The position numbers and the translations under genes are program-made. Positions 1 through 19,432 of a stretch of 41,679 nucleotides of DNA are shown here, one piece after another; position 1 is the stretch's first letter, and every line of letters starts with the position of its first letter. Source of the DNA: a virus; IMG/VR virus record IMGVR_UViG_3300045988_173913, positions 1 through 41,679 of that record. The stretch is one strand, 5' to 3'. The notes under the pieces were generated by a model. It had not been told where the DNA came from and did not search any database. It was given only the letters and a program-made list of their open reading frames with translations.

Positions 1-60
1 AAAAGCACGGGCAAGGATTAAATAAAAGCACGGGCAAGGATTAAATAAAAGCACGGGCAA
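1..60. repeat. Tandem 23-bp repeat (aaaagcacgggcaaggattaaat), 2.6 copies, continuous with the array at the right end of the window
   Basis: Direct reading: the unit repeats at 1-23 and 24-46, with a partial copy at 47-60. The first 15 nt equal the last 15 nt of the window. Confidence 0.9.
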
Positions 61-192
61 GCCGTTTTCGGCGGCTTGTCTGTGCTGGAAAGCCGTCGGA
101 TGTTTCTTGCCTTTCTTGGCAATACGAAAATTTAACAGACGCCGAAAACACGGCGGAAGGGTATTCCAGGAATTATACAAAGATTTAAAAGC

Positions 193-618
193 ATGAATAA
201 GATATTTACAATTCTCACACTTGTTTGCGCCTTAAAAGCGCAAGCGGGTATAATTGCGGACACTCTATATATGGAAGCGCGGGGCGAGGGCGAACACGGA
301 CAAAGAGCTGTTGCAACTGTTATTTACAATCGAGCACACGGGAAGGCGGACAAAATTGAAGGCGTCTGTTTGAAGCCTAAACAATTTTCTTGCTGGAATG
401 GAAAGACGCCCAAAAGCGTCAAAATTGCGCCTAAAAACGCTTTTGACAAGCAAGCCTATATAATTGCCTTAAAAATAGAGAAAGAGCTTTTAAACGGCAA
501 TTTTAAGCCTTTGGGAGACTGGACGCACTACTTTAATCCGAAACTTTGCAATCCATCTTGGGCTAAGGGCGCAAAGCAAACACGGGTAGGGAATCATAAC
601 TTTTTAAAAACTAAATAG
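193..618 (+). CDS. SleB/Hydrolase_2-family cell-wall hydrolase with an N-terminal signal peptide (candidate endolysin or secreted lysin)
   Basis: The N-terminus MNKIFTILTLVCALKAQAG is hydrophobic and signal-like. MEARGEG...QRAVATVIYNR...FSCWN matches the conserved SleB-type hydrolase core. Confidence 0.6.
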   Translation: MNKIFTILTLVCALKAQAGIIADTLYMEARGEGEHGQRAVATVIYNRAHGKADKIEGVCLKPKQFSCWNGKTPKSVKIAPKNAFDKQAYIIALKIEKELLNGNFKPLGDWTHYFNPKLCNPSWAKGAKQTRVGNHNFLKTK

Positions 619-632
619 AAAAGGAATATATC

Positions 633-854
633 ATGGGCGCAACAAATGAATTTCCAAGCACGGGAAATATTGTTTTTGATTATTTGTTTATGGGGCTTAT
701 GCTATTCATGCAGGCTTTAATCTGGTGCGTTGATAAGATATTGAAATACCCTATCTTAACCGCGATTTTCCTCATCGTTGTTCTTATCCTTGCGATAATA
801 AATAGGACAATTGAGACAGAAATACGCGGGAATTTGTGGAAATGGAGACGGTAA
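633..854 (+). CDS. Small membrane protein with two predicted TM helices, possible holin partner of the upstream hydrolase
   Basis: 73 aa with two hydrophobic stretches (IVFDYLFMGLMLFMQALIWC; ILTAIFLIVVLILAII) and a charged C-terminus. It lies immediately downstream of the hydrolase. Confidence 0.35.
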   Translation: MGATNEFPSTGNIVFDYLFMGLMLFMQALIWCVDKILKYPILTAIFLIVVLILAIINRTIETEIRGNLWKWRR

Positions 855-855
855 G

Positions 856-1329
856 ATGAAACAAAGTTCGCTTTCTAAAATACGGGAATGCTTGCAAGAA
901 TATTGCAAAGAGAATTGCATTAACGTAAAGTTAAAGATAAAAAAGCACGGGAAAAACACCGAATATATTGCGCTTTATTTTATTGAAGTTTTCGACGCTT
1001 GCCCAGATGTTTTACAGAAAATCCTTAACTTTGTGGCAAGTATTAAGTTGGATAGAACGCCCACAATGCATTGCCCCGATGAGGGGATTTACCTGCACCC
1101 AGAAGATTTTTATGTTGTCCAAAAATCATTCTCAAAAAAGATAAAGAAAAAGGCAACAAACTTCTTAAAAAGAAGGTTTCCAATATTAGTGTCGCCCTAT
1201 CCTGATTGGGAACTATTAGTTTTTCAATTTCTCTGTGGGAATATACAGATTGGAGACGATGAACATTTGCTTAATAAATTTTGGCAAGAAATAGAACAAA
1301 AGAAGGGAAACAGCAGAAATGGAAAATAA
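856..1329 (+). CDS. Hypothetical protein (start moved to the internal ATG at 856 to avoid overlapping the upstream ORF)
   Basis: The track ORF is 811-1329. The ATG at 856 (MKQSS...) directly follows the stop of 633-854. Confidence 0.4.
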   Translation: MKQSSLSKIRECLQEYCKENCINVKLKIKKHGKNTEYIALYFIEVFDACPDVLQKILNFVASIKLDRTPTMHCPDEGIYLHPEDFYVVQKSFSKKIKKKATNFLKRRFPILVSPYPDWELLVFQFLCGNIQIGDDEHLLNKFWQEIEQKKGNSRNGK

Positions 1330-2440
1330 AGAATTATATGCACACGCAAGCGCATTTGCGCGGGTATGGGCTTGTCCTGCCAGCTTGCGCTTAGAAGATG
1401 GATTGCCGAGCGAAGCGAGCGCGGCAAGCGAGCACGGGGAGTACTTGCACGGGATAATGGAGACGGGATTGAATCCGGACATTGTTTCCAATCTTTCCGA
1501 CGAGGAAAAGCAGGGCTTAAAATATGTATATGAAAGACTTGCGGAAATAGAGCACAATAACGGCGGAATTTTGGAAGAAAAAAGGGAGCTTGCTCTTGAA
1601 TACAAAGACAAGCAGGGCAACAAGTTGCTTTCTGGGCGAATTGACAAGGTTTACATTACGGAATACGGAATTGATATAATTGATTATAAATTCGGTTCTC
1701 TGTCGGTTGAAAGCGCAGAAAAGAATTTGCAACTTGCTTGTTATGCGTTTTTGTATGTTGCGAGCAATCCTGAACTTGCGGGCAATACACGGGTAAGGGT
1801 GCATATTATTGCGCCTTTTGCGATAGGCAAGAAATACTCTACTGCCTTCTATACAGTTGAGGAAATTCGGGATATTATCGGTACTCAGATAATTGAAGCA
1901 ATCCACATTGCAAGAAAGACGAATGCGCGTTTTGCGTCTGATATTGGCGAACATTGCCGTTATTGCCGAGCAATAGGCATTTGCCCGAAACAAAAGGAGA
2001 ATGCTGAAATTGTAGTGGCAGAAGGCGAAAATACGCTAAGGCAAGGCGACTTTGCAATAACGCAAGATAATGCGCTGGAAGTCTTTAAGCAGTTGGAAGA
2101 ATGGAATAAACGTAAGTTGCAAGCGGAAAAGTATGTTGAAAAGGTCAAAGAGAATCTTGAAAGGTACGTCAACGATAGCAAGGACGAGCGTTTTGAATGG
2201 AAGCAGGGCGCACGGGTAATACAGTACACTGCGCAAGATGTTTATAACTATTTTAAGCAACTAATTCCGCCAGACAAATTTATAGACTTTTGCAAACCGC
2301 AAGTAATGAATCTTGTTGAGTATGTTTCTGGGCTTTCAAGGCGCAGCAAGGCGAAGGAAAAGAAAGCATTGGACGAAGCCTTGTTAAGTGCGGGGGTGGA
2401 AGTGAAATACAACAAATCAAAGTTAATTTTGAAGAAATAA
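1319..2440 (+). CDS. Cas4/RecB-like PD-(D/E)XK nuclease with a 4Fe-4S cysteine cluster; C-terminal coiled-coil
   Basis: An N-terminal Cys (WACPASL) plus C-x2-C-x5-C (HCRYCRAIGICP) fits the Cas4/AddB-type iron-sulfur arrangement. IDKVYITEYGIDIIDYKFG fits a D...E.K nuclease motif, and QLACYAFLY fits a QxxxY motif. Confidence 0.6.
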   Translation: MENKELYAHASAFARVWACPASLRLEDGLPSEASAASEHGEYLHGIMETGLNPDIVSNLSDEEKQGLKYVYERLAEIEHNNGGILEEKRELALEYKDKQGNKLLSGRIDKVYITEYGIDIIDYKFGSLSVESAEKNLQLACYAFLYVASNPELAGNTRVRVHIIAPFAIGKKYSTAFYTVEEIRDIIGTQIIEAIHIARKTNARFASDIGEHCRYCRAIGICPKQKENAEIVVAEGENTLRQGDFAITQDNALEVFKQLEEWNKRKLQAEKYVEKVKENLERYVNDSKDERFEWKQGARVIQYTAQDVYNYFKQLIPPDKFIDFCKPQVMNLVEYVSGLSRRSKAKEKKALDEALLSAGVEVKYNKSKLILKK

Positions 2441-2463
2441 CCTAAACGAAAGGAAAAATAAAA

Positions 2464-2778
2464 ATGAAACAATTAGACAAGACTCAGATAGCATTGATAA
2501 ACGCCGCAATCTTTGACGATTGCAAGAAGCTAAAAATCACATATGGAGAGCCAGACTTCTCCGCATATAGAGATGTAAAAGTCAAGGGTTCAAGCTGGAC
2601 AGACTGGATAGATTACTTGCTATCGGGCAAGATAAATCTGGAACAGCATTTCTCGTTCGGAAATTTGAGCCGCCGCCACAATGTGCGCAATGGCTTGTTA
2701 AACGCGAAACAGCTTGCGTTTTGGCAGGGGTACTTTATCGCAAAGTTTGATTGTGACTTTGGCATAAATAATTACTAA
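2464..2778 (+). CDS. Hypothetical protein
   Basis: 104-aa ORF, co-directional with its neighbours and tightly packed against them. Confidence 0.4.
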   Translation: MKQLDKTQIALINAAIFDDCKKLKITYGEPDFSAYRDVKVKGSSWTDWIDYLLSGKINLEQHFSFGNLSRRHNVRNGLLNAKQLAFWQGYFIAKFDCDFGINNY

Positions 2779-2800
2779 TCGGAAGAAAGGAGAATAGAAA

Positions 2801-3223
2801 ATGAGCAAGAAACTAAAAATTCAGTTTTGGAGAGCAGAAAAAGCTTTGGCAATGCAAGTATTAGAGCAGGAAGGTTTGCCTAAAAAGAAAAAAGAAGGCA
2901 ATATCCTCATTCTTGGCATTCCCGAATTCCGCGACGCCTATCTTTATTGGGCGGTTAATGCAATCGCTGATGAGCTGTTCGCGGGCGAAGGAGAGCTTAA
3001 AGTTGGCGAGATGTGCGAGGTGAGAGGTACTGAATTTGATATTTGGGAAAAAATGAAACTCATAGCAATTCTTCCAGAGCAATACAGAGAGCGATTCATT
3101 GCCGAAATGAAGAATTGCCCTACTGAGCACAGTTCTTTTAGATACGCCCGCCCAATTCACAAGCGTACAAAACCTACCGTTGAGGAATGCGGGAATGTTA
3201 TAACTTATACTTGGGAACAATAA
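2801..3223 (+). CDS. Hypothetical protein; its N-terminus is encoded by a 30-bp repeat that recurs at 4728
   Basis: 140-aa ORF preceded by an AAAGGAG RBS. Confidence 0.45.
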   Translation: MSKKLKIQFWRAEKALAMQVLEQEGLPKKKKEGNILILGIPEFRDAYLYWAVNAIADELFAGEGELKVGEMCEVRGTEFDIWEKMKLIAILPEQYRERFIAEMKNCPTEHSSFRYARPIHKRTKPTVEECGNVITYTWEQ

Positions 3224-3250
3224 ATAAACCAAAAAATGAAAGGAATAAAA

Positions 3251-3412
3251 ATGAAAAAGAGAAATAAAAAGCACGGGATAACACAAATCTCAATCTCATT
3301 CCCAAAGGAGATGTTGCCGAAGTTGGACGAATTGGCGCGAAGGCAGATGCGGAATCGTTCAAACTATATAACAACGTTAATTAAGGAACGAATTGAATCA
3401 AAAGAGCTTTAA
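3251..3412 (+). CDS. Ribbon-helix-helix (CopG/Arc/MetJ-like) DNA-binding protein, 53 aa, absent from the ORF track
   Basis: Manual translation gives MKKRNKKHGITQISISFPKEMLPKLDELARRQMRNRSNYITTLIKERIESKEL. The ISISFP..L..LDELA.....RS..I pattern is typical of RHH proteins. The RBS is aaaggaataaaaATG. Confidence 0.6.
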   Translation: MKKRNKKHGITQISISFPKEMLPKLDELARRQMRNRSNYITTLIKERIESKEL

Positions 3413-3435
3413 TTCAAATGAGGAAAGGAAATAAT

Positions 3436-3711
3436 ATGAAAAAAACAATTAAATCAACCAGCCCAAAATTTAAGGTAGGGGACATTGTATGGATTCCCTT
3501 CCCAGCGATATTGGACTCAGAGGGTAGTATATGCTTCATACAAACCACAATAACAGCATTGGTTTTTGAACTTAGAAATGGCAACGGAGTCTTTTGGGGA
3601 TATAAATTAGTAGATTTGCCCAATGGCAAATGTGCGGACGAAGACTCTGTATTTGCCTCAAAGGACGAATGCATTGCCTTCATTAACAAAGAATCGAACG
3701 AAGAACTATGA
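3436..3711 (+). CDS. Hypothetical small protein with a KOW/SH3-like motif (KFKVGDIVWIPFP)
   Basis: The track ORF is 3418-3711. The internal ATG at 3436 is preceded by a GAGGAAAGGA RBS. Confidence 0.45.
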   Translation: MKKTIKSTSPKFKVGDIVWIPFPAILDSEGSICFIQTTITALVFELRNGNGVFWGYKLVDLPNGKCADEDSVFASKDECIAFINKESNEEL

Positions 3712-4565
3712 ACACAGACGAATCAATCCAAATACTAAAAGAGAGTCCTATTGAAGTGGTTGACTCTATAAACCCGATAGAAGCCATTGAAAGGGCTAAT
3801 ATCGATATTCAAATTGCTACGGCAAAGAAGTATCCGAGAAGCTTGGCACGGGTTAAGAATGACATTCTTTCCACTGCCACACTGGACGAGGAAACAGCGG
3901 AGAGTTGTTTCTACGTCTTGCCCGCAAGAGGAAATGAAGGAGGCAAGCCCATACAAGGTGCGAGCGTACGCCTTGCGGAAATCGCAGTCAGTTGCTTTGG
4001 CAATATCAAGGCGGGGGCGAGAATCATTAGCAATGACGGTAATTTTGTCACCGCGCAAGGTATCTGCCACGACGTTGAGAAGAATGTTAGTGTGTCGGTA
4101 GAAGTTCGCAGGTCAATCAAGGGAAAGAATGGTAAGACCTATTCAGACAATATGATACAGGTCACTTCGCAAGCGGCTTGTGCGATTGCCTATCGCAATG
4201 CAGTGTTCAAGGTAGTTCCTCTTGCGCTTGTGAAGCCCGCATTGGACAAAGCCATGCAACTTGCAAAGGGAGACATTAAGAGCCTTTCCGAGAGAAGGGG
4301 CATAATGGTGGACAAATTTGCGAAGCTTGGAATAACGAAAGAAAGGCTCGCAGAGCGCGTTGGCAAGCTCTCCATAGAGGAGATAACCCTTGACGATTTG
4401 CAGACGCTCACAGGCTGCTACAATGCACTTAAAGACGGCGAAGCTGCTGTTGATGATATTTTCCCGCCGACTAAAAAGGAAGCTCCAAAGGCAGATCCTT
4501 TTGCGGACAGGGGAAACAACACAAAGAGTCCCGAAAAGGAAGAAGTAAAGGATTCTTTATTGTAA
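3708..4565 (+). CDS. Putative single-strand annealing/recombination protein (RecT-like)
   Basis: 285 aa. It sits in a phage recombination module next to the Cas4-like exonuclease. The segment QAACAIAYRNAVFKVVP weakly resembles RecT. The assignment is tentative. Confidence 0.4.
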   Translation: MNTDESIQILKESPIEVVDSINPIEAIERANIDIQIATAKKYPRSLARVKNDILSTATLDEETAESCFYVLPARGNEGGKPIQGASVRLAEIAVSCFGNIKAGARIISNDGNFVTAQGICHDVEKNVSVSVEVRRSIKGKNGKTYSDNMIQVTSQAACAIAYRNAVFKVVPLALVKPALDKAMQLAKGDIKSLSERRGIMVDKFAKLGITKERLAERVGKLSIEEITLDDLQTLTGCYNALKDGEAAVDDIFPPTKKEAPKADPFADRGNNTKSPEKEEVKDSLL

Positions 4566-4647
4566 TAAGCAAATGGGTATGCCATTCGGCGACCACTAAA
4601 TACACGGGTGGCATACCGCCTTATAGGGAAAAGAGAAAGAACAGGAA

Positions 4648-4878
4648 ATGATAGAGGAAGCGGACTTTCAGAAGATAGGCAATGCGGCGATTGACTTGTG
4701 CGTATTTGTAGAAAAGTTGCGCTTGGGCAAGAAACTAAAAATTCAGTTTTGGAGAGCCGAACGAGCACAAGCGATGCTCACTTGCTTCGATGTGTTTATA
4801 AATGGATATGGAACGATGCGAGACGCCAAGCGCGGCGCAGAGCGGTTCCTAAGGCGTTTGCAGGAGGCGGTGAAATAG
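4648..4878 (+). CDS. Hypothetical protein carrying an internal copy of the KKLKIQFWRAE peptide
   Basis: 76-aa ORF. It contains the 30-bp repeat shared with 2806-2835. Confidence 0.3.
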   Translation: MIEEADFQKIGNAAIDLCVFVEKLRLGKKLKIQFWRAERAQAMLTCFDVFINGYGTMRDAKRGAERFLRRLQEAVK

Positions 4879-4890
4879 AAAGGATAAGAT

Positions 4891-5250
4891 ATGGATACGA
4901 AATATAAACCCACAATATGTTTAGATTTTGACGGAGTTATAAACTCTTACAGTAAATGGACAGGTTATGATGACATTCCCGACCCGATTGTAGAAGGTGC
5001 GAAGGATTTTATTAACGAAGCAAAAAGCGAGTATAAGATTTGTATTTTTACGACAAGAGCTAAAACCGAAAGCGGAAAATTTGCGGTAAAAGAGTATCTT
5101 GAAAAGAATGATATAGAAGTCTCTGACATAGAAATCACAGATGCCAAACCTCCAGCGATTGTGTATATCGACGATAGGGCTATCTGCTTTACGGGGACTT
5201 TTACGGGATTGTTGGATAAAATAAAAGCATTTAAGCCATGGAATCGTTAA
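4891..5250 (+). CDS. Small HAD-superfamily phosphatase/nucleotidase-like protein
   Basis: The N-terminal ICLDFDGVIN is the HAD motif I (DxDGV). Downstream are IFTTR and YIDDR. Confidence 0.55.
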   Translation: MDTKYKPTICLDFDGVINSYSKWTGYDDIPDPIVEGAKDFINEAKSEYKICIFTTRAKTESGKFAVKEYLEKNDIEVSDIEITDAKPPAIVYIDDRAICFTGTFTGLLDKIKAFKPWNR

Positions 5251-5648
5251 AAGTTATGAACAAAATAAACTCAATCGAACAACTGGACGCACTTGGCGCA
5301 AAGATTTGTGAGCTATTACAAGTTGGGATAGACAAGGCAAGTGTTGTCGTGCCCGAAACGTTGCAACAAATTGTTGCGTGGACGCTCTACAAAAATGCTA
5401 CAATGTCTCTGTTTCTTATTGCCATTATCGCAGTGTTAATCTGGATAATGATACCGCTTTGCAAGAAATGTGTTTCGTCTGGTGACAACCCCGTTGTAAT
5501 GATGTATGGTACGGGAGTTAGTGGGTGCTTCATAGGGATAGCAGCGTCGTGTGAGCAGTTGATTACAGAATCAATCCCATCACTTATCAAGGCACTTGTC
5601 GCGCCAAACCTCGTGATAATCGAACAGCTCGGAGGGTTGGTGAAATGA
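5238..5648 (+). CDS. Membrane protein
   Basis: Strong TM helix MSLFLIAIIAVLIWIMIPLC. Confidence 0.4.
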   Translation: MESLKVMNKINSIEQLDALGAKICELLQVGIDKASVVVPETLQQIVAWTLYKNATMSLFLIAIIAVLIWIMIPLCKKCVSSGDNPVVMMYGTGVSGCFIGIAASCEQLITESIPSLIKALVAPNLVIIEQLGGLVK

Positions 5649-6139
5649 AGGACAAGAACGGAATCAATATTGAATGTCAAATTTGTGAAGCATTTGAATA
5701 CTGCAAAGATAGTTCTGCATATGAACAATGCCAAGATAAGGCATTTTCTCCGAGCAAGGAAGCCTATGAAGCCCGCATTGCGGAGTTTCAAAAGGAGCTG
5801 AATATCGTCCAAGAGTCCGAACGAGCGGAAGCGCAAGAGGCGGATAGGCTTCGAGGGGAAGTCAAAGAGCTGGGGACGAAGCTGACTGAAACCGTCAAGC
5901 TTTTGGGGGAAAGGTCAAGGGAGTGCGGAGAATTAGAAGCATACAATGAGGTGCTTCAAAGGAGGATTAGAGAGTTTTCAATGGAGCTTCTCGACCGAAC
6001 GATGAAAGAGAATAAAGACGTTTTGGAACGGCTTAAAAATTGGGAAGAATATTTGGATAAAGATATGTCGACGCAATCGACAGATGCCGCCGATGTGTCG
6101 AAAAACGGCGAAAAATCGACAGAAAGCGAGGAGAAATGA
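5645..6139 (+). CDS. Coiled-coil protein with an N-terminal Cys cluster
   Basis: The CQICEAFEYC...QCQ segment is followed by a long charged heptad-like region. Confidence 0.4.
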   Translation: MKDKNGINIECQICEAFEYCKDSSAYEQCQDKAFSPSKEAYEARIAEFQKELNIVQESERAEAQEADRLRGEVKELGTKLTETVKLLGERSRECGELEAYNEVLQRRIREFSMELLDRTMKENKDVLERLKNWEEYLDKDMSTQSTDAADVSKNGEKSTESEEK

Positions 6140-6498
6140 ACGACAACTTTTACATTGCAGTATCGGCAAGAGCTATTCTCAAAGACGGAAAGCGCAAATA
6201 CTTTCTTGGCAGGCTGACTTGCGCAAAGGATAGCCCCAAGATGTCTTGGCAAGTGCAAGAGCGAGATGAGCTTCAAAATGAGGATTCTTTAAGCCGAGCG
6301 ACAGCAAGGAAATATGGGATTTTTCTTCTTGCAACAAAAGATTCCATAAAGGACTTGCGCAGAGGTGTTGCGGAGTATTTCCGCAAAAACAATATAAAAA
6401 GCAAAGACGCTTTCGTGCAGTATTTTAGGCAATACATATACAATACAAGAGAAGTAGAGCTTGACTGGGTATTTGAGATAATCGGAAAGGTGAAATAA
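6136..6498 (+). CDS. Hypothetical protein
   Basis: 120-aa ORF with start/stop coupling to its neighbours. Confidence 0.4.
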   Translation: MNDNFYIAVSARAILKDGKRKYFLGRLTCAKDSPKMSWQVQERDELQNEDSLSRATARKYGIFLLATKDSIKDLRRGVAEYFRKNNIKSKDAFVQYFRQYIYNTREVELDWVFEIIGKVK

Positions 6499-6753
6499 AT
6501 GAAACACTATTGGATGCATTTTAAGGAAGATAAAGAAAGAGGGCTAAGAGAAAGTTGGTATTTAACATTGTCTTTTGCAAAACTCCCTTCATCTGGGTGG
6601 CTTTATCAACTCGATAACAAGGAGTGGATATTCTATACATATGACAGCAACACAAAGACGGATATTGAATTTAAAGGCATATCCAAGCGCGAAGCAATGA
6701 AGCGTTGTGTGGCGATTTTAAAACTGTTAAATGAAATGGAGAACGGAAAATGA
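6499..6753 (+). CDS. Hypothetical protein
   Basis: 84-aa ORF, start/stop-coupled to its neighbours. Confidence 0.4.
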   Translation: MKHYWMHFKEDKERGLRESWYLTLSFAKLPSSGWLYQLDNKEWIFYTYDSNTKTDIEFKGISKREAMKRCVAILKLLNEMENGK

Positions 6754-7055
6754 AAAGCAAAAAGAATAAGTCTATTACTGTCAATAAAGTAGGGGTAATG
6801 CCTACTATTGAGGAAATTGAAGTTATTCCTCATTGTACTCAAGATATACAGTATTCAAGTCCAAGTAAAGGCCCTTGGATATATGAAAATAAGATTGCTG
6901 TTCGAGTGACGCATACAGATGTGGAAATTTGTTTTAGATTCTACGAAGATTTACGAGGATTTTCTATGGAAAGTATTCTTAGCGCAATCAGCGATACGTT
7001 AATCAAGCGCGTAAAAGAAGGGAGTATGGCAAATGAGCCAGACATTAGTGTGTAG
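6750..7055 (+). CDS. Hypothetical protein
   Basis: 101-aa ORF, coupled to its neighbours. Confidence 0.4.
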   Translation: MKSKKNKSITVNKVGVMPTIEEIEVIPHCTQDIQYSSPSKGPWIYENKIAVRVTHTDVEICFRFYEDLRGFSMESILSAISDTLIKRVKEGSMANEPDISV

Positions 7056-7178
7056 ATACGTTTATTGCAAGCGGAATTGCCCGTTCTCGTACCGAAACAA
7101 TCCTAACGCAAAGGGAGTGCGCATAGTATCGTGGGAGTGCTTTAAGAATTGCAAAAAGATAAAAAGAAAGGACTAACA

Positions 7179-7394
7179 ATGCTAACATTCACAATAAACG
7201 ATAAACAAGGCGTTGAGCTAACATTTGACGGCGAGGACAAAAGGCTTGCCGAGCTTAACGCAGGGAACGGCGCAACAGCGCAAGACGTAGCTCTTGGCGC
7301 GGCAGTAGTGCAGGCGTTAAAACTAATGAACTATAAGCCGCGAATGGAGCTTGTTAATAATTTGATTAGAGCAAAAGAAAGAAAGGATAAGTAA
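7179..7394 (+). CDS. Hypothetical protein (start set at the internal ATG with an AAAGGA RBS)
   Basis: The track ORF is 7149-7394. The ATG at 7179 has better RBS spacing. Confidence 0.35.
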   Translation: MLTFTINDKQGVELTFDGEDKRLAELNAGNGATAQDVALGAAVVQALKLMNYKPRMELVNNLIRAKERKDK

Positions 7395-7687
7395 TGAATA
7401 ACGATATAAAACTAAAACCGTGCCCATTTTGCGGGCAAATACCAGAACTAATGGGCGAAGAAACTGACGAGCCTATCAGCGTACATTGCAATCAATGCGA
7501 CTATGACATTGGCTATTTTGATACGGTGGAAGAAGCCGCAGAGGCTTGGAATACGAGGAAGGAAGAAACCTTCACAAAAGATGAAGCGGATTGGATTCTA
7601 AACCTTCTTGTGTCGGAGTATACGAACACACCTCAATGTAAATCTATTATTGCAAAGTGCGAAAGAATTTTGGGAACAAAGGATTAA
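7394..7687 (+). CDS. Lar-family restriction-alleviation protein
   Basis: KPCPFCG ... CNQCDY ... EAWNTR matches the conserved Zn-ribbon and AWN(T/R)R signature of the Lar family. Confidence 0.55.
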   Translation: MNNDIKLKPCPFCGQIPELMGEETDEPISVHCNQCDYDIGYFDTVEEAAEAWNTRKEETFTKDEADWILNLLVSEYTNTPQCKSIIAKCERILGTKD

Positions 7688-7910
7688 CGATGGAAGGACG
7701 AAAAAATATAAAGAAAAAATAAGACATGCCGTGGTGTATAGATACAACAAGAAACAACATACTGGTTATCGCTTATTAGCGATTTGTGATACTCGCCAAA
7801 CGGCAGAAAGCAAGATGAAACAAATGTCCAAAGATTTTAAAATTAAATCATTACAAATATCGGTTGAACCTTTTATGGTTTGTAAAACCAGAAACAAAGA
7901 CAAAAAGTAG
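7608..7910 (+). CDS. Doubtful ORF overlapping the Lar gene by 80 nt
   Basis: There is no in-frame ATG before residue 70 once past the overlap. It may start at GTG 7731, or it may be non-coding. Confidence 0.2.
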   Translation: MCRSIRTHLNVNLLLQSAKEFWEQRINDGRTKKYKEKIRHAVVYRYNKKQHTGYRLLAICDTRQTAESKMKQMSKDFKIKSLQISVEPFMVCKTRNKDKK

Positions 7911-7940
7911 ATTAAGAAAGAAATATAAAAGAGGAAAATT

Positions 7941-8426
7941 ATGGAAGAAGTGACCGTAAAAAATTATCAAGAATTGGCAATGCGGACGTGCTTGCCGAGC
8001 GCGAAAAACTGGCAGTATTGCTACTGCCTTATAGCTTCCGAAATAGGAGAGGCGTTCGGGAAGTGGGGCAAGAAATTCCGCGACGGAGAGTTTGACAAAG
8101 ACAAGCTGACCGACGAGCTTGGAGACGTATTCTGGGGAATCGCGTTGGCGTGTGAATTGGGCGGGCACAGTTTTGAGGAATTATGGGAAAAAGAAGAAAG
8201 TTGGGGATTTCATTGTGCAAGCATCCAAATAGATTATCATCTTCCCAATATTTATAGAGAATGGATGTACTATGGAATGAAAAAAAATATCGAAATTTTA
8301 AGCTTCATCAAAACCTTCGCGGAGGAATGCGGTATTGACCCGCTCGACTGCTTACGGCGCAACATTGCAAAGCTCGCAGGGCGCAAGGAACGCGGAACTA
8401 TTGGAGGAAATGGAGACGAAAGATGA
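7941..8426 (+). CDS. MazG-like nucleoside triphosphate pyrophosphohydrolase
   Basis: EIGEAFGK...ELGDVFW matches the EExxE/ELGD metal-binding helices of the MazG/all-alpha NTP-PPase fold. Confidence 0.6.
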   Translation: MEEVTVKNYQELAMRTCLPSAKNWQYCYCLIASEIGEAFGKWGKKFRDGEFDKDKLTDELGDVFWGIALACELGGHSFEELWEKEESWGFHCASIQIDYHLPNIYREWMYYGMKKNIEILSFIKTFAEECGIDPLDCLRRNIAKLAGRKERGTIGGNGDER

Positions 8427-8749
8427 AAACTTCCACAAAGAATAATTCAATGCTCAACAGGCTTGGGCTAACGAAAGCCGATATTAAGGAGGCTTTAAAG
8501 TTTAAACCCAAACCGAAACCTAAGATTCAACGCAGAGGCTCTGTATCGCCCGCAAAAACGCCTTGCAAGTGCGGAGGCACAGGAATGCTTCAACAATGGA
8601 TTGAAAGCGATTCTAAGGGCAATTCCAAGCTCTACGCAATGGTGTTTTGCCAAGATTGCGAGTGCAAGACTAAGATATATTCCGAGCGAACGCTAAACGA
8701 GTCGCGACAGGAAGCTTTAAACGAATGGAATATTAGAAACCGAAAATAA
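8423..8749 (+). CDS. Second Lar-like Zn-ribbon protein
   Basis: CKCGG ... CQDCEC ... ALNEWNIRNR parallels the Lar signature seen at 7394. Confidence 0.45.
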   Translation: MKTSTKNNSMLNRLGLTKADIKEALKFKPKPKPKIQRRGSVSPAKTPCKCGGTGMLQQWIESDSKGNSKLYAMVFCQDCECKTKIYSERTLNESRQEALNEWNIRNRK

Positions 8750-8770
8750 AGTTGCCAAAGGATATACCAG

Positions 8771-9202
8771 TTGGAACGTCTAAGAATAAGAGATATGAAA
8801 GAAATAATTGAACGATTGGATAGAATCATTGAGCTTTTGGAAGGATTGTCTCTTGAAAAGAGAAAAACAAAGGCAAGAAAGGAAGATAAAACCTCTCGCG
8901 GAGACATGGAAACCATAGAGGGGAGAATCAAGAATGTTGAGTTTAAGAAAGGCGCAAAATGCGGAGAATTTGCAATTTTCACATTAGAGGGGACTCAAAA
9001 GGGAGTAGTACCTTGCAAATGCTTTGATAGTAAGCTCTTTGATAAAATTGAGGATAACTTGAAAGTAGTGGCATCGGGGAATTATCAGAACTACAATGGA
9101 TATAATAGTTTCATTGTTAGAGATATAATGGAGAAAGAATTAGAGGATAATCGCTCCACTCAACCTACGGACAACGATAGTGATGACGATATGCCATTTT
9201 AG
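8771..9202 (+). CDS. SSB-like protein with an acidic C-terminal tail DDDMPF
   Basis: The C-terminus DNDSDDDMPF mirrors the bacterial SSB tail DDD(I/L)PF. It is preceded by a compact, beta-rich, OB-like segment. Confidence 0.45.
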   Translation: MERLRIRDMKEIIERLDRIIELLEGLSLEKRKTKARKEDKTSRGDMETIEGRIKNVEFKKGAKCGEFAIFTLEGTQKGVVPCKCFDSKLFDKIEDNLKVVASGNYQNYNGYNSFIVRDIMEKELEDNRSTQPTDNDSDDDMPF

Positions 9203-9222
9203 ATTTAATCATATAGGGAAAG

Positions 9223-9489
9223 GTGCGAATTGATATGGAGAGTGAACAGCAACCATTAAAAAAGACAGGGAGACCAAGAATTGCGGAAGAAATGAAAAAG
9301 AAGCCACTTAGCTTCACTTGTCCTCCAAAATATTACGGGATTCTTTGCAACAATACCACAGAGAAGTTGAATCTTATTCTGCAAATTGTGTTTAGCAATC
9401 CTATGTTGGCAGACCAATATATTGCGACATTACAAAAAATAGAAGGAGTTAATAACGATGAGAATAGAGCTGAACATAACCCCGCCTAA
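9223..9489 (+). CDS. Hypothetical protein
   Basis: 88-aa ORF containing a basic GRPR motif. Confidence 0.35.
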   Translation: MRIDMESEQQPLKKTGRPRIAEEMKKKPLSFTCPPKYYGILCNNTTEKLNLILQIVFSNPMLADQYIATLQKIEGVNNDENRAEHNPA

Positions 9490-9916
9490 AAGCACTGGGC
9501 AATCGGGAAAAAAGCTGACGACCATTGGCGGACACGCAGCGATGTTTGAGACAGCGGAAAGCAAGAGTGTTAAGGCTATGTTCTATGCCTTGTTGAAGGA
9601 TAAACGTCCTGCCAAGCCTTTTTCGGGAGCAATAAGAGTAAACTACTATTATGTGTTCCCTTATCTCAAATCTATGTCAAAGAAGCTTATTAAGCAGAAA
9701 TTGGTTATCCCCAAGACGACAAAGCCCGACTATGACAACATGCCTAAGCAGATACAAGACGTGATGACCAAGTTGGGATTTTGGACTGACGATGCCATAA
9801 TTTTTGACGGCGACAATCTAAAATGCTATTATGAGACGCCTAAAATAGTAATTGATATTCAAGAAGTTTCCGCAACTGACCTAACAAATGAACTAAAAAT
9901 GAAAGGAATTATATGA
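9458..9916 (+). CDS. rusA: RusA-family Holliday junction resolvase
   Basis: KPDYDNMPKQIQDVMTKLGFWTDDAIIFDGD matches the RusA catalytic core (D..DN..K ... DD). Confidence 0.6.
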   Translation: MRIELNITPPKSTGQSGKKLTTIGGHAAMFETAESKSVKAMFYALLKDKRPAKPFSGAIRVNYYYVFPYLKSMSKKLIKQKLVIPKTTKPDYDNMPKQIQDVMTKLGFWTDDAIIFDGDNLKCYYETPKIVIDIQEVSATDLTNELKMKGII

Positions 9917-10488
9917 ACGAAGAAAATGAAAAGAAGAACTCTGTTTACATCTCCAAAGGGAAAGGCTATGAGCTTTTTAAGTTCCTTTTGGCGGCAAAAA
10001 GTACCAATAAATACAGATATATACTAAACCGCATATATTGCGATGAATCCGATAATATGGGAGTGCTTGTTGCTACCGATGGTAAACGTATGCACATTCT
10101 CTATAATGTTTGGAGTTATGGATTCCAACAAGGAGTCCAGTATATGACAAGTATGGACTCACACGGCATCTCATTTGTCCCGATTGTGAATCCAGACGGG
10201 AATTTCCCAAATTGGAAATCCGTAATGCCAAAGTTTGGAGACCAGTCTAAGGAATTTAATATTGAAATAGATAAGAAAACGAAAAATCTTTTGATTGCCA
10301 ATATTTCTTATATTCTTGGGGAAAACCACGCCCCAAAAATTAACGGAGAATTTCTCGCGCCGCTATCTAACTTGCCAGAGGCAAAAATACGCTTTGAGAA
10401 AGACAAAGACCTTATAGAGGTAAGCGGATATGACGTAGTATCCCTTCTGGATTATAAAGCTATAATAATTGGAATGAGGGATTTTTAA
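9913..10488 (+). CDS. Hypothetical protein
   Basis: 191-aa ORF. Confidence 0.4.
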   Translation: MNEENEKKNSVYISKGKGYELFKFLLAAKSTNKYRYILNRIYCDESDNMGVLVATDGKRMHILYNVWSYGFQQGVQYMTSMDSHGISFVPIVNPDGNFPNWKSVMPKFGDQSKEFNIEIDKKTKNLLIANISYILGENHAPKINGEFLAPLSNLPEAKIRFEKDKDLIEVSGYDVVSLLDYKAIIIGMRDF

Positions 10489-10709
10489 TAAAACCCCTAA
10501 GAAACCTTGACAAATAGCCATGGTAGTACATTCTGTTCTTTAAAGTAAGATAATAAAACTCGTTTGAGTAGCGTCCGAGTTTAACTTTAAAAAGGATTAT
10601 TGTAAAAATATAGTTGACATTAAAAGCATTGCGTGGCAGGGTGCTTTTATAAAGTAAAAAACCAAAGTTTTTGCCCTCTCAAACTGCCACTTGGGAGGGC
10701 TTTTTATTT

Positions 10710-11588
10710 ATGGAAGCAAACACGGTTCTTAAGAAAGAGAATATACCGTTCACACAAGTTCCGAACGTTATAATTTATGATGAGAAGCTATCAGCGCAGG
10801 CAAAAGGTGTAGCTTGTTATTTATTCTCACGTCCCGACGGCTGGCGTTTTAGCTATATTGAAATTGCGTCTCATTTTACAAACTCCGAGGATACAATCCG
10901 AAAGCTTTTAGTAAAGCTTGAAGAGGCAGGCTATTTGACGCGAGAAAAGATAAGAGAAGGCGGGAAGTTTGTAAGGGTTGAATACAGGCTAAACTTCACC
11001 GTTCTTGCAAAAACCAAGACTGGTAAAACCAAGACTGATAAAACCGAGCTTGGTTTTTTAGGCACTAATAATACTGAATATAGTAATACTGAATCTAATA
11101 ATAATACATCTATGTCATCTTGCAAGATGACTCCTGCTAAGAAGGCTTCAATAGAAGCAGACAAGATAGCAGAGCTATTCAACTCAACTTGCGTTTCATT
11201 GGCTAAAATCAAGCTCCTAAGCAAGTCAAGAATGTCGCAAGTTGAAGCCCGCCTAAAAGAGCTTAAACAAACTCCAGAGACTTACGTCTCTTTTTTGCAA
11301 GACCTATTCGCAAGAATAGAACGCTCAGACTTCTTGACAAACCGAGGAGGTTTAAACAGAAACAACTGGAGAGCTTCATTTGACTGGATATTTGCGCCAA
11401 GGAACTTTCTAAAAGTAATCGAAGGCAATTACGACAATAAAGGCACAAATACAATATCTAAGCTAACCGAACCAGACGGTTGGCAGGTTTACTTCATAAA
11501 AACATACACAACTGAAGCATTGCCCGCAAGCTGGGCAGATGTACCAGAGAGCAAAAAAATCACAATTTTAAAACAAATAAACAAATAA
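10710..11588 (+). CDS. Putative replication initiation/replisome organizer protein (winged-helix N-terminus)
   Basis: Lies immediately upstream of dnaB and follows a long intergenic region. The track start at 10671 is replaced by the ATG at 10710, which has a GGGAGGG RBS. Confidence 0.45.
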   Translation: MEANTVLKKENIPFTQVPNVIIYDEKLSAQAKGVACYLFSRPDGWRFSYIEIASHFTNSEDTIRKLLVKLEEAGYLTREKIREGGKFVRVEYRLNFTVLAKTKTGKTKTDKTELGFLGTNNTEYSNTESNNNTSMSSCKMTPAKKASIEADKIAELFNSTCVSLAKIKLLSKSRMSQVEARLKELKQTPETYVSFLQDLFARIERSDFLTNRGGLNRNNWRASFDWIFAPRNFLKVIEGNYDNKGTNTISKLTEPDGWQVYFIKTYTTEALPASWADVPESKKITILKQINK

Positions 11589-11589
11589 T

Positions 11590-12924
11590 ATGAACTACGG
11601 TAATCAAATTCAAAACGAACGAGGCTTGCTTGCCGGCATAATGGTAAGCGATGATAATTCTGTTTACGATAATGCAACAACGCTTGGAATTTCTGAAGAT
11701 TGTTTCTTGGAGTCGATTCACAGGAAAATTTTTGAGGCGATGAAGACTTTGTCGGCAAAAAATAAACCTTTAAATGAAGTAGAAGTTGCCAGCGTCTTAC
11801 AAAATGAAGAAGGGATTTTTAAAAAAATAGATGATATATGCGCAAGCGTTGAGACCTCACTACATTGGAAGACCTTTGCAACATTCCTCATAAAGGAAAA
11901 ACAGCGGCGGGATATAAAAAGAGCATATGAACTCTTTACCGAGAATCCCGACAACCTCGACCATGACGAAAATTTGGCTAAGCTTGAAAATTCAATATTT
12001 CAAGTGAATGGTAAAATCTCCGATTTCCCTAATACTGTTCAAATCCTAAACGAATCTCTTGAAGAACTAAAACGCAGGATAGACAACAGAGGCAATATAG
12101 GCATACGAACAGGGTTTCAATTTTTAGATTCATTGCATATCCAAAATGGGAATATGGCAGTATTAGGAGGACGCCCTGCAACAGGGAAAACTGCACTTAT
12201 GCTGAACATTGTTGCAAATATCTTAAAGCAGGATAGACCAACGCCCATACTAATTTTTAGCTTGGAAATGACCAGAAGCGAGCTTGTATCAAGGCTTATA
12301 AGCTTGATAAGCGGAGTAAGCGCAAGCAGTCTTAGAAACGGCATAATACCCGCCACAGACATTCCTAAGATAGAAGGAGCATTCTTTTTTCTAATGAAAA
12401 AGAGCAAGCTATTCCATATTGTCGATAAGGCGAATATGGATTATTTACAGATGTTATCTTGGGCGCGAAAATTCAAGCAGCGGTATGGAATTGGACTTAT
12501 ATTTGTCGATTACCTGCAACTATTAAAGCCCGCATCAAGGAAAACGAGCCGCGAGCAGGAAGTTTCTGAAGTATCTCGAAGCTTAAAGGAAATTGCCAAA
12601 GACTTAGATTGTGCAGTTTTCGCGCTTGCCCAGCTAAACAGAGAGACAGAGAAAGAAAACCGCCCACCGAGACCAAGCGACCTCCGAGAGAGTGGAAGTA
12701 TAGAACAAGACGCAGACTACATAATGATTCTAAGCCGCGTAATAGAGACAACGCACATAAACAGCTCAGGCAACGAGGAGAAAATTACAACCTACAACGT
12801 TCCAGACAATATCAACTTTGATAAGCCTACTATTAAGGTTCATTTGCTAAAAAATCGACATGGCTCAGTTAATGCAACCGACTTGGTATTTAATAAGGCA
12901 TTAACAAAGTTTGAAGAACAATAA
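11590..12924 (+). CDS. dnaB: Replicative DNA helicase (DnaB family)
   Basis: Walker A is GGRPATGKTALMLN and Walker B is IFVDYLQLL. The AQLNRE and SGSIEQDAD motifs are present. The N-terminal region is DnaB-like. Confidence 0.8.
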   Translation: MNYGNQIQNERGLLAGIMVSDDNSVYDNATTLGISEDCFLESIHRKIFEAMKTLSAKNKPLNEVEVASVLQNEEGIFKKIDDICASVETSLHWKTFATFLIKEKQRRDIKRAYELFTENPDNLDHDENLAKLENSIFQVNGKISDFPNTVQILNESLEELKRRIDNRGNIGIRTGFQFLDSLHIQNGNMAVLGGRPATGKTALMLNIVANILKQDRPTPILIFSLEMTRSELVSRLISLISGVSASSLRNGIIPATDIPKIEGAFFFLMKKSKLFHIVDKANMDYLQMLSWARKFKQRYGIGLIFVDYLQLLKPASRKTSREQEVSEVSRSLKEIAKDLDCAVFALAQLNRETEKENRPPRPSDLRESGSIEQDADYIMILSRVIETTHINSSGNEEKITTYNVPDNINFDKPTIKVHLLKNRHGSVNATDLVFNKALTKFEEQ

Positions 12925-13035
12925 AAGAAATGCCTCTAAAAACGATTCTTTTGCCCCTAAAAACGATTTTTATTGTAGATTGGATACGAGTATACCATTA
13001 AGAATAAAAAACCCCTTATAGGCGAAATTTAAAAA

Positions 13036-13401
13036 ATGGCAAAGAAAGATTTAGTAGGAATAACCACTTCTCTTATGGTATTCTATGCAGGAGAACTCGA
13101 AAGAGCTATTATGAGTTCTTTTAAGAAAGCAACAGAATATGATTCATTTATGCGCAAATTAGAAAATTGCGGACTCCTAATTATTGACGACTTTGGCAAA
13201 GAAAAATTCACCGAACGATACGAAGTCAGCGTATTCCAAATCTTCGAGAAAAGATTTGCAAACCTTAAACCAATTATCTTTACTACAAACTATCGCGGCG
13301 AAGAGTTTAAAGCTCGGTTCTCCGATATGGCAAACTATGAACCATTTAGCCGACGAGTGAATGAATTTATGGAACGAATCAACTTTTCAAAAAAAGACTA
13401 A
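13036..13401 (+). CDS. DnaC/IstB-like helicase-loader fragment (Walker B and sensor region only; Walker A half absent)
   Basis: LLIIDDFGKE is a Walker B motif, and IIFTTNY is the sensor motif of DnaC/IstB ATPases. The ORF begins only about 20 aa before Walker B. Confidence 0.5.
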   Translation: MAKKDLVGITTSLMVFYAGELERAIMSSFKKATEYDSFMRKLENCGLLIIDDFGKEKFTERYEVSVFQIFEKRFANLKPIIFTTNYRGEEFKARFSDMANYEPFSRRVNEFMERINFSKKD

Positions 13402-13403
13402 CA

Positions 13404-13805
13404 ATGAAAGACTTAATCGTAAATCTACAAACCATCTATGTAATTGCCAAACATATACATTACAACTATGTAGGCATCAACTTCCTTTCCGTTCACAAAT
13501 ATATGGACGAAGTCGCAGACCCTATCCAAGACGAATTTATTGACGCTATAAAAGAAAAATTCTTTATGGCAAATGGAGAGCAAGTTCCTTCTTTCCCCAA
13601 AATATATAACGCGGTCATCAATTATTGCGAGACACACAACAACTTTTTTACAATAAATGAGTTGTTAGAAGAAATAAGAGTCGCGCTTTATCGGATAGAC
13701 CAACTATCCAGAGACCCTTCTTTGCATTCGGGAACAATAGACCTTCTTGGCAAAATCGCTTCTCATTTCCAAACTAATATCGCACTTCTTCAACATTTGT
13801 CATAA
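13404..13805 (+). CDS. Dps/ferritin-like four-helix-bundle protein
   Basis: The spacing of H/D/E residues (HIHYNYVGINFLSVHKYMDEVADPIQDEFID) resembles the Dps ferroxidase-site helices. The length, 133 aa, is slightly short for Dps. Confidence 0.4.
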   Translation: MKDLIVNLQTIYVIAKHIHYNYVGINFLSVHKYMDEVADPIQDEFIDAIKEKFFMANGEQVPSFPKIYNAVINYCETHNNFFTINELLEEIRVALYRIDQLSRDPSLHSGTIDLLGKIASHFQTNIALLQHLS

Positions 13806-13910
13806 AAAATGTTGACTCGTTCAAAAAAACAATATCATATATCCCACAGAAGCTGAAATTGCTTATTCGCTTATCATATTAAGGTTGAGGCTTAATCCAC
13901 CCCGTAAAAT

Positions 13911-13947
13911 AAAGCCGTAGGCTTTCTTCATTTTTGCCTACGGCTTT
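13911..13947. terminator. Bidirectional rho-independent terminator between the convergent gene blocks
   Basis: Perfect 11-bp inverted repeat aaagccgtagg/cctacggcttt with a 15-nt loop. It is flanked by T-rich runs on both strands. Confidence 0.5.
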
Positions 13948-13960
13948 TCCTTTCCCAGTT

Positions 13961-14251
13961 TTAGAACTTTTGCGCGACTATGTTCGCAACGAACGTTATA
14001 ATTCCTACTGCGCCTACTGCACGCCATTTAAAGGATTCGAGAGCACGCACCCTAAGTTCTAAATCATCAAGCCTAACATGCAATGGCCTGCAAACCGACT
14101 CCCGATGTTCTTTGAATCGAACATACTCACCCTTCATTGAGTCGATTTTCTCTTCGCGACGAAGCGCGTCTGCACGCATCTGGTCAAGCGTGTGGAATAT
14201 TGATTTTTGCATCTCTTCAAGGCGCGCAATGCGCGACGGCTCATCGCCCAT
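13961..14251 (-). CDS. Small coiled-coil protein with a C-terminal TM anchor (lysis-associated?)
   Basis: The C-terminus WRAVGAVGIITFVANIVAQKF is hydrophobic. It is the last gene of the minus-strand block and lies in a GC-rich island. Confidence 0.35.
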   Translation of the reverse strand: MGDEPSRIARLEEMQKSIFHTLDQMRADALRREEKIDSMKGEYVRFKEHRESVCRPLHVRLDDLELRVRALESFKWRAVGAVGIITFVANIVAQKF

Positions 14252-14252
14252 C

Positions 14253-14726
14253 TCATTTCCCCAATTTAAAAGCTTTTCTTGTAAGCCCTGCGCCGACGTA
14301 TGCCGAGACGAGGTTTGCCATCAATTCTTTCCAAACGTCGGCAAGGTAAAATCCGTTCACATACGCCACTGCAAAACTTTCCTTTTCGGGAATCAATCCC
14401 CACAGCCAACCGCCTGTTTGCTCGACAGTCTCCACCGCAACGGGTATATCCTTAAAAAACGCAAACACAAACGGCGCGATTCCAAGCATCGCAAACGCCG
14501 CAAACATCATCGCCCTGCGCGTCCACGTTCCGCCGTCGTCCTTTGTGCGAGTAAATGCCGCGTCGTGCGCCGTTATGTCAGCCGCCTGCTGCTTTTGTAG
14601 GGCTTCCAATACCGCCGTATATTTTTGCGTGTTGAGAGCCGACAGTTGCCCCAAGATTGTGACAAGCCCTGTAAATATCGCGCCAAGCGCTCCCGAATCC
14701 CAAAGAGTCTGTATTACTTCACCCAT
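14253..14726 (-). CDS. Putative holin-like multi-TM membrane protein
   Basis: 3 hydrophobic helices (GALGAIFTGLVTILGQL; AMMFAAFAMLGIAPFVFAFF; LMANLVSAYVGAGL). The start was moved from 14834 to the internal ATG at 14726, which overlaps the upstream stop (ATGA). Confidence 0.35.
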   Translation of the reverse strand: MGEVIQTLWDSGALGAIFTGLVTILGQLSALNTQKYTAVLEALQKQQAADITAHDAAFTRTKDDGGTWTRRAMMFAAFAMLGIAPFVFAFFKDIPVAVETVEQTGGWLWGLIPEKESFAVAYVNGFYLADVWKELMANLVSAYVGAGLTRKAFKLGK

Positions 14727-17514: not shown

Positions 17515-17526
17515 ATTGTTATCTCT

Positions 17527-18617: not shown

Positions 18618-18638
18618 AACAATATAAAGTTATATGTG

Positions 18639-19427: not shown

Positions 19428-19432
19428 TGTCT

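Follow-up and report, generated by a model that had tools for sequence, protein, structure and literature searches.

Why should a word of six letters be written almost only on one strand of a phage genome, and almost only across the first genes of one operon? The question is raised by IMG/VR virus record IMGVR_UViG_3300045988_173913, considered here over positions 1 to 41,679 (hereafter, the window), where the hexamer CACGGG crowds the start of the early region. By exact k-mer count the window holds 23 copies of CACGGG on the + strand and 2 on the - strand, while dinucleotide-preserving shuffles yield 7.2 +/- 2.7 on both strands combined, with a maximum of 14. Longer forms of the word are confined to the + strand entirely: 16/16 copies of GCACGGG, where 2.1 are expected, and 20/20 of RCACGGGH, where 2.8 are expected. 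Clustering statistics are based on a de-duplicated circle of ~41.6 kb, namely the window minus a 61-nt assembly overlap. On this circle 19 of the 20 + strand copies of CACGGG lie within a 6.1-kb zone, 40300..4781 (p = 2.5e-15), the best clustering among 2788 6-mers tested; when a 23-bp tandem array is left out, 14 of 15 dispersed + strand copies still fall inside the zone (p = 2.7e-11). Among 7-mers with at least 8 copies, GCACGGG ranks first of 885 by over-representation (13 against 0.86 expected), and in the window phage and its relatives RCACGGG occurs across the first ~5 kb of early genes at ~30 times its chance frequency, on one strand. The strand-specific cluster around a tandem repeat that the original prediction had described from the letters of the window is confirmed, and is stronger than first described.

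Could the word be a by-product of the proteins encoded over it? The in-gene copies number 12, whereas synonymous shuffling within genes gives 2.4 +/- 1.4 (maximum 8 in 2000), and resampling with codon frequencies from outside the zone leads to an expectation of 0.96. The share of CAC among histidine codons is 74% in the zone and 35% elsewhere. Selection is thereby shown to act on the nucleotide sequence itself. The word under selection is short, with ~7 informative bases, and non-palindromic: site logos of the window and its close relatives have R at -1, any base except G at +1, and a preference for A at +2 and +3, with nothing conserved farther out. Outside the hexamer, only R at -1 is retained in the more distant relatives L040 and L050, which defines the core as RCACGGG.

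Related genomes allow the cluster to be followed through time. INPHARED contains no close relatives of the window, and IMG/VR no relatives of its exonuclease; exonuclease relatives at 85–94% identity occur on phage-sized contigs of 40–45 kb. Six non-redundant close relatives were compared, some of them as parts only, and the counts given for eight genomes include L040. Each close relative carries 12–17 copies of CACGGG on the early sense strand within 4.8–9.1 kb, and 0 on the other strand there. Summed over the zones of eight genomes (46.2 kb), the tally is 129 copies on the early sense strand against 0 opposite, where ~4 would be expected, and the copies represent ~50 independent positions; the recurrence in related genomes that the original prediction required is thus borne out. 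Adding L050, an IMG/VR relative of L040 with 21 versus 0, brings the total to 150 versus 0. Density within the family is 12–21 co-oriented copies per 4–9 kb, or about one per 270–540 bp, and the cluster begins 1.4–2.5 kb from the start codon of terS, the small terminase gene, beyond a non-coding region and on the side away from terL.

What persists in these genomes is the number of copies and not their places. Gene content of the early region is strongly mosaic, and copies lie in many unrelated genes across the relatives, in each of the three reading frames, ~60% of them inside genes. Between genes, a linker recurs in which a stop codon is followed by an A-run, CACGGG, YAAG, a Shine-Dalgarno sequence, and ATG. 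Copy number is thereby shown to be kept while positions turn over. Outside the zones, 130 kb of the eight genomes contain 1 copy on the cluster strand and 10 on the other. As a side observation, the former value amounts to depletion (1 versus 11.2 expected, P = 1.6e-4) and the latter is at expectation; the depletion could be an effect of coding-strand composition or of selection against stray copies.

The deepest comparisons bear on who reads the word. L040 has the same layout as the window at considerable distance (TerL 48%, exonuclease 33%, and hydrolase 55% identical; GC 0.42), and carries 15 copies versus 1, just one at a position shared with the window family. L046, with an exonuclease 49% identical, has 3 versus 0 copies in 2.9 kb. 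L049 (GC 0.28; exonuclease 37% identical, hydrolase adjacent; region 800–3500) contains no CACGGG at all. Instead, it has 12 copies of CACGTG in 4.26 kb, where 0.18 are expected, mostly as GCACGTGT, and these too are asymmetric, with 8 GCACGTG against 0 CACGTGC. GCACGTG in L049 is a one-base variant of the motif. Because the word differs by one base in L049, while the equally diverged L040 keeps it, the comparison suggests that the reader comes from the host and not from the phage; motif identity appears to track a host-like property rather than the phylogeny of the phages. Between the window family and L040, the lineages compared in this respect, no small DNA-binding protein is shared.

Several more distant loci fall outside this pattern. 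Those recovered from IMG/VR through the phrog_3657 protein (L001–L023; GC 0.37–0.64) were set aside as too distant and lack a CACGGG cluster; strand-biased k-mers found in them de novo mostly reflect coding bias, and a 42-nt period in L008 comes from a coding repeat rich in proline. L045, which shares the divergent layout and has a TerL 37% identical, but lacks DUF2800 and the hydrolase, shows no cluster of any motif.

Within the window, the individual copies and the structures that contain them are as follows, where ORF denotes open reading frame.

337..342, + strand: motif copy in the Hydrolase_2 gene, frame 0
581..586, + strand: motif copy toward the 3' end of the Hydrolase_2 gene, frame 1, kept in every close relative
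659..664, + strand: motif copy in ORF 633-854, 26 nt from its start, frame 2
946..951, + strand: motif copy in ORF 856-1329, frame 0
1433..1453, + strand: motif doublet, 1433 and 1448 with 15 nt spacing, in the DUF2800 / PD-(D/E)XK exonuclease gene
1788..1793, + strand: motif copy in the exonuclease gene, frame 1
2211..2216, + strand: motif copy in the exonuclease gene, frame 1
3272..3277, + strand: motif copy in the 5' part of the RHH gene, 3236-3412
3847..3852, + strand: motif copy in the phrog_3657 gene, 3708-4565
4576..4617, + strand: intergenic hairpin with the last motif copy, 4603-4608 (RNA fold -23 kcal/mol, z = -3.8)
41006..41011, + strand: motif copy arising where phage sequence joins the first CRISPR-type repeat
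41435..41440, + strand: motif copy, tCACGGGa, within ORF 41227-41574
41537..41542, + strand: motif copy, gCACGGGa, close to the 3' end of ORF 41227-41574
41569..41679, + strand: tandem array of 4.8 x 23 bp, unit AAAAGCACGGGCAAGGATTAAAK, called by Tandem Repeats Finder and containing 5 motif copies
50..86, + strand: hairpin of the last array unit and downstream sequence, arms AGCACGGGCAAGCCG and CGGCTTGTCTGTGCT (RNA fold -29.7 kcal/mol, z = -5.3)

The eleven dispersed copies from 337 to 4603 lie within 10 nt of where the original prediction had placed them, the RHH gene does contain one, and the copies occupy all three reading frames plus intergenic DNA, as had been proposed. Other particulars need revision. 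Two copies of gcacgggaat had been read near 41441 and 41538; the second is present as gCACGGGa at 41537, while the first, at 41435, is tCACGGGaat and lacks the leading G. The stretch from about 4.7 to 41.4 kb, described as free of + strand copies, contains one at 41006, which is probably incidental, and a stray outside the cluster at 16064. Two copies occupy the - strand, at 16081-16086 and 33946-33951, in place of the single one reported.

The tandem array also takes on a different appearance. Eight tandem copies had been claimed at the terminus, and what exists is one internal array. The window begins and ends with an identical stretch of 61 nt (1-61 and 41619-41679), an assembly-type overlap that falls inside the 23-bp array, from which it follows that the contig is circular or permuted and was cut within the repeat. 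The array runs on into unique sequence at position 62, with window positions 1-61 being the same DNA repeated by the overlap, and sits in intergenic DNA, with ORF 41227-41574 on one side and the hydrolase gene at 193-618 on the other. It is internal, not at a genome end, and its terminal look marks where the circular contig was cut. The true number of units may be under-called. No exact match to the unit exists in IMG/VR, and every relative compared, L040 and L050 included, lacks the array. The close relatives have only one or two single units at that place; for instance, L030 carries two, at 8284 and 8509, on either side of a 65-aa gene. With units 97–100% identical to one another and the array absent from all relatives, it is best explained as a single intergenic copy that was recently amplified in tandem. 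In the hairpin at 50..86 the motif sits in the 5' arm, and the stem relies on G-U pairs, so that it forms on the + strand only; L030 and L035 keep part of this hairpin, and compensatory changes are absent. The sequence of the hairpin at 4576..4617 is kept in all close relatives. Separately, a distant phage with a phrog_3657 homologue (L001; GC 0.60) has 11 tandem 30-bp units at its contig end, positions 1-340, ~2 kb upstream of that homologue, and so provides another early-region array at an assembly break.

In one reading, motif-bearing intergenic units are short conserved boundaries at which gene cassettes are exchanged, and the array would then have arisen by unequal crossing-over. The extreme mosaicism of the early region fits such a role, as does the L030 gene enclosed by two units, and some homology blocks end exactly at intergenic copies (L026 8620/L031 2639, L028 8619/window 41587, and L030 9781/L035 1587). 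Counted as a whole, however, breakpoints lie within 15 nt of a motif in 21 of 222 cases, where 18.8 +/- 4.2 are expected (p = 0.32). Most copies, moreover, reside in conserved genes, which exchange would disrupt, and microhomology needs no strand lock. As the explanation of the cluster, recombination linkers are very unlikely in our estimation, albeit compatible with the Chi-like activity considered below, of which they could be a consequence.

The remaining explanations depend on where the zone lies relative to genes, of which the relevant ones are listed here.

193-618, + strand: Hydrolase_2 cell-wall hydrolase
1319-2440, + strand: DUF2800 / PD-(D/E)XK Cas4-like exonuclease
3236-3412, + strand: RHH protein gene
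3708-4565, + strand: phrog_3657 protein gene, at the same gene position as RecT in L040
36235-38121, - strand: terL, 628 aa, containing a Hint/intein splicing domain (residues ~156-309)
38158-38871, - strand: terS, small terminase

The + strand early operon spans ~40347 to ~14 kb across the junction and opens with small ORFs, and the motif zone is its first 5–6 kb. Downstream follow an OB-fold protein, RusA, an O-like initiator with internal repeats, DnaB, and a DnaC-like loader. The phrog_3657 protein has no Pfam match, no significant PDB sequence match, and no similarity to the RecT of L040; a part as annealing protein is a candidate role based on gene position. The - strand additionally carries the portal gene and structural genes of an E217/PB1-like myovirus, and TerL is only ~33% identical to that of any isolate. 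In L024, L026, and L030 the terminase is intein-free, at 481–482 aa. No integrase or CI-like repressor was found among the proteins, nor any lysogeny genes. Between terS and the early operon lies a 1.4-kb A-rich non-coding region with a good sigma-70-type candidate early promoter at ~40310; Rfam, tRNA, promoter, and terminator scans of the motif zone itself returned nothing.

Some repeats of other kinds accompany this layout. The control region between terS and the early operon includes a purine-only A-rich tract of ~130 nt (39850-39990) and two copies of a 68-bp direct repeat (40044-40180; 95% identical), each with a TTGACA-type promoter-like hexamer, and the contigs of several relatives break in this region. 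Two 15-bp tandem repeat families at 11010-11103, inside the O-like initiator gene (10671-11588), are likely origin iterons, by analogy with the lambda origin within gene O. A 54-nt direct repeat, 83% identical, at 2802-2855 and 4724-4777 is a duplicated coding segment within the zone; its first copy covers the 5' end of ORF 2801-3223, and its second overlaps ORFs 4648-4878 and 4698-4907. Finally, TTGCGC (42 copies) and its complement GCGCAA (39 on the + strand) are each ~6.5-fold over-represented, with copies throughout the genome; of the complete palindrome TTGCGCAA, the window has just 4 copies.

With the cluster ~2 kb from terS, might its copies be packaging signals, recognized by the small terminase in the manner of pac or cosB sites, with the array as the principal one? 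Short motifs in repeated copies are a feature of known pac sites, among them those of P1 and SPP1. Here, however, copies extend over 4–9 kb, compared with a few hundred bp for known pac or cosB sites, and lie mostly in genes; their positions turn over; the array is missing from all relatives, L040 and L050 among them; and the non-coding region adjoining terS has no copies. Terminase or pac recognition, one of the original proposals, is accordingly disfavored, to the point that we consider it extremely unlikely.

A second proposal was that the copies are operators for the RHH protein, and more broadly they may be asymmetric sites for a DNA-binding protein, either stoperator-like or forming a nucleoprotein array with a 23-bp core. 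The RHH gene lies within the zone and itself carries a copy, and the spacing of the 23-bp array resembles that of iteron-type sites. A precedent for orientation locked to transcription also exists: over 20 asymmetric 13-mers are bound by the L5-type repressor, and inverting a site abolishes repression (PMC9283540). As with the stoperators of Cluster A mycobacteriophages (PMC9283540, PMC6550527), the sites here are many and asymmetric, and their orientation strictly follows transcription. Stoperators, however, are 13-mers found in promoters and short intergenic gaps of the whole genome, in both arms, and are bound by a monomeric helix-turn-helix repressor of temperate phages. The motif considered here has a core of only ~7 informative nt, with ~60% of copies in genes rather than promoters or short gaps, and is restricted to one zone of 4–9 kb; the - strand late operon has no copies beyond chance level, and neither an integrase nor a CI-like repressor accompanies it. 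Nor is a cognate protein conserved. RHH is truncated in L024, has no match in the part of L035 examined, and was not found among the early proteins of L040, yet these genomes keep 12–16 copies, and no candidate binding protein is common to the window family and L040 even though their motif is identical. The array, for its part, is missing in all relatives, and is no replication iteron by position: it lies ~10 kb from the O-like initiator gene. Protein-binding sites are therefore quite unlikely as an account of the cluster, and RHH operators in particular are disfavored.

The answer that we prefer, tentatively and as possible rather than probable, is that RCACGGG is a polar, host-determined, Chi-like cis-signal near the genome end beside the packaging genes. 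A strand lock that is absolute over ~50 independent sites implies a signal read on one strand or by something that moves in one direction. Together with a dose that is kept while positions turn over, and a word that apparently tracks the host, this lock favors a Chi-like signal, as do the location of the cluster 1.4–2.5 kb from the terS start and an analogue in the phages LLS and MD8. Who reads the word, where the physical end lies, and which strand is read, RCACGGG or its complement CCCGTGY, are all inferred.

How might such a signal work? The reader would be a host helicase-nuclease of AddAB/RecBCD type, moving into the DNA from an exposed end. Packaging sites usually adjoin terS; were that so here, the zone end would be the one left free during packaging and the first to enter the next cell, where a nuclease loading at that end would run into many closely spaced sites in the right orientation. 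Degradation would then give way to production of a RecA-loading 3' tail, a switch that could save the genome, favor circularization or recombination-dependent replication, and limit the supply of substrates for CRISPR spacers. The 23-bp array would simply raise the motif dose. In lambda-style geometry, the strand with its 3' end at the free end carries CCCGTGY, and a leading-strand rule with the origin inside the initiator gene (~11 kb) would indicate the same strand. Were packaging to proceed in the opposite direction, RCACGGG itself would be read, and the zone would coincide with the drifting terminal redundancy of a headful series.

Comparable arrangements have been described. In the genomes of LLS of E. 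coli, MD8 of P. aeruginosa, and P1, no k-mer is more over-represented than Chi (Zheng et al. 2025, PMC12315714). It lies in one orientation at 20/23 sites in LLS and 32/32 in MD8, concentrated at the cos-adjacent end away from the terminase genes, where RecBCD enters (PMC12315714). The window phage likewise has a short oligomer as its top k-mer, in nearly one orientation and concentrated beside the packaging region on the side away from the terminase, and as in LLS and MD8 its sites lie inside genes and are gained and lost with module shuffling. The systems differ in that the motif here matches no known Chi, and in that this phage, an E217/PB1-like myovirus whose host is an uncultured human-gut bacterium, is not lambdoid and carries its own exonuclease and annealing-type module; in one genome a copy has been amplified into a tandem array. 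Motif density is one per 0.3–0.5 kb here versus about one per kb in LLS/MD8-type phages. Phages that have a nuclease and annealing protein but no anti-RecBCD protein are also often Chi-rich (PMC12315714). Among the proteins of the zone, no Gam-, Abc2-, or gp5.9-type anti-RecBCD protein was matched in Pfam or PHROGs, and several small ORFs are without assigned function.

Which Chi might the word resemble? With 7 nt and no palindrome, it agrees in size and form with known Chi sites. The known Chi sequences of E. coli, B. subtilis, L. lactis, S. aureus, Pseudomonas, and H. influenzae are none of them clustered in the window. Chi of Lactococcus lactis and Streptococcus, of the RexAB/AddAB class, is 5'-GCGCGTG-3' (PMC5959072 Table 3); GCACGTG differs from it at one base and GCACGGG at two, with GCNCGNG as the common 7-mer form. 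This is a likeness by sequence only, short of identity, and the present host is not known to be a lactic acid bacterium. Other signals considered by eye, namely the sigma-54 -24 element TGGCACG, MotA-box-like middle promoters, CsrA sites, and FtsK-orienting polar sequences (KOPS), were dropped, as the flanking elements that they require are unconserved.

A number of facts sit poorly with a Chi-like signal. No copies occupy the 1.4-kb non-coding region nearest the presumed end, nor the first 0.7–1.5 kb of the early operon. Lambda-like geometry would have the C-rich CCCGTGY read, whereas known Chi are G-rich, and in L049 the variant word has a palindromic core. An exonuclease, an OB-fold protein, and an annealing-protein-like gene are encoded by the phage itself, whereas most Chi-rich phages of the lambdoid survey are without a nuclease/annealing module (PMC12315714). 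Chi is defined by its excess and leading-strand skew in the host chromosome and by recognition through the host nuclease, and the support here comes from phage sequences. Above all, every copy is on the sense strand of one operon, a polarity that reading at the level of RNA fits equally well.

Were the word read in the early transcript, it might be the site of a host or phage endoribonuclease or RNA-binding protein that processes the polycistronic RNA and times its decay. The copies start 0.7–1.6 kb after the candidate promoter at ~40310 and end before the replication genes. Many of the intergenic ones lie between a stop codon and the next ribosome-binding site, in the recurrent linker upstream of a Shine-Dalgarno sequence, and two fall within the strong hairpins described above, which rely on G-U pairs and are specific to the + strand. 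By an informal tally, ~14 of 24 in-gene positions are in the first 20% of the ORF, a bias toward 5' ends that Chi would not predict. The T4 endoribonuclease RegB acts on GGAG in early mRNAs, and similarly the present motif is short, lies on the sense strand of early transcripts, and is often placed between cistrons just upstream of starts. GGAG, on the other hand, doubles as the Shine-Dalgarno sequence, whereas RCACGGG is upstream of it or in genes, and no RegB-like gene was found. Most sites, furthermore, have no conserved flanking structure, their information being limited to -1 and +1 to +3; Rfam gives no match; the hairpin lacks compensatory changes; five tandem cleavage sites lack an obvious use; and we know of no ribonuclease of RCACGGG specificity. 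An RNA-level reader would need to be a host factor, because the motif is constant across lineages that share no small early proteins. Taken as a whole, we regard an RNA-level signal as unlikely.

A related thought is that RCACGGG and GCACGTG are not host Chi but a polar code of the phage group, used either by a phage nuclease as a Chi equivalent or by an RNA-level timer of early genes. The cluster is always centered on the module of exonuclease, hydrolase, and annealing protein, and for this reason the phage's own recombination nuclease is possibly regulated by sequence. We hold such a code to be unlikely as well.

If the Chi-like signal is host-determined, as we prefer to think, then the identity of the host becomes pertinent, and CRISPR sequences offer a lead. 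Three type I-C-like repeats (reverse complement GTCGCGCCCCCGCGGGCGCGTGGATTGAAAC) occupy 41011-41174 of the window. The first "spacer" of this insert is the phage's own sequence at 40693-40719 (27/27), and on both sides the insert is bounded by 31 nt of duplicated phage sequence, with flanks at 40976-41010 and 41175-41209. It resembles a circle of 3 repeats with 3 spacers that was excised from a host array and integrated by recombination between spacer and protospacer; alternatively, it could be a phage mini-array or an RNA anti-CRISPR. Its spacers have no match in the parts of relatives examined.

A scan of metagenomes for the repeat led to a 12-repeat type I-C array in a human gut metagenome (ENA UOJE01014242; L062 1-745). 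One of its spacers matches L035 at 7614-7647 (34/34), adjoining a TTC protospacer-adjacent motif, and a second matches the window at 15383-15415 (32/33); the others have no match in IMG/VR or INPHARED. On the strength of these spacers, the host is a human-gut bacterium of ~42% GC with a type I-C system. A host protein flanking the array, P0156, is present on contigs of up to 352 kb, and the flank has no plasmid match. Among species genomes, the exact repeat was found only in Marinobacter and in Methylotenera and Spirochaetia metagenome-assembled genomes, without spacer matches, and these candidates were rejected.

The phenomenon has a known counterpart, and what is new is the word, the phage group, and the uncultured gut host. 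Whichever reader is responsible, the cluster is a clean case of strong nucleotide-level selection overriding codon choice, a matter of consequence for phage engineering and recoding. Under either form of the phage-group code, the copies would be cis-elements of a new class that runs through coding sequence in every reading frame of the strand. If the signal is Chi-like, a phage genome would reveal the recombination hotspot of an uncultured human-gut bacterium from sequence alone, with the low-GC lineage giving a one-base variant for a second host, and the accumulation of Chi at an exposed end would extend beyond the lambdoid phages of proteobacteria to a myovirus family with its own recombination module. 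It would also establish a link to CRISPR adaptation, which feeds on the degradation products of the same nuclease, in a family that is targeted by type I-C spacers of its host and of which one member, the window phage, has itself captured a piece of such an array.

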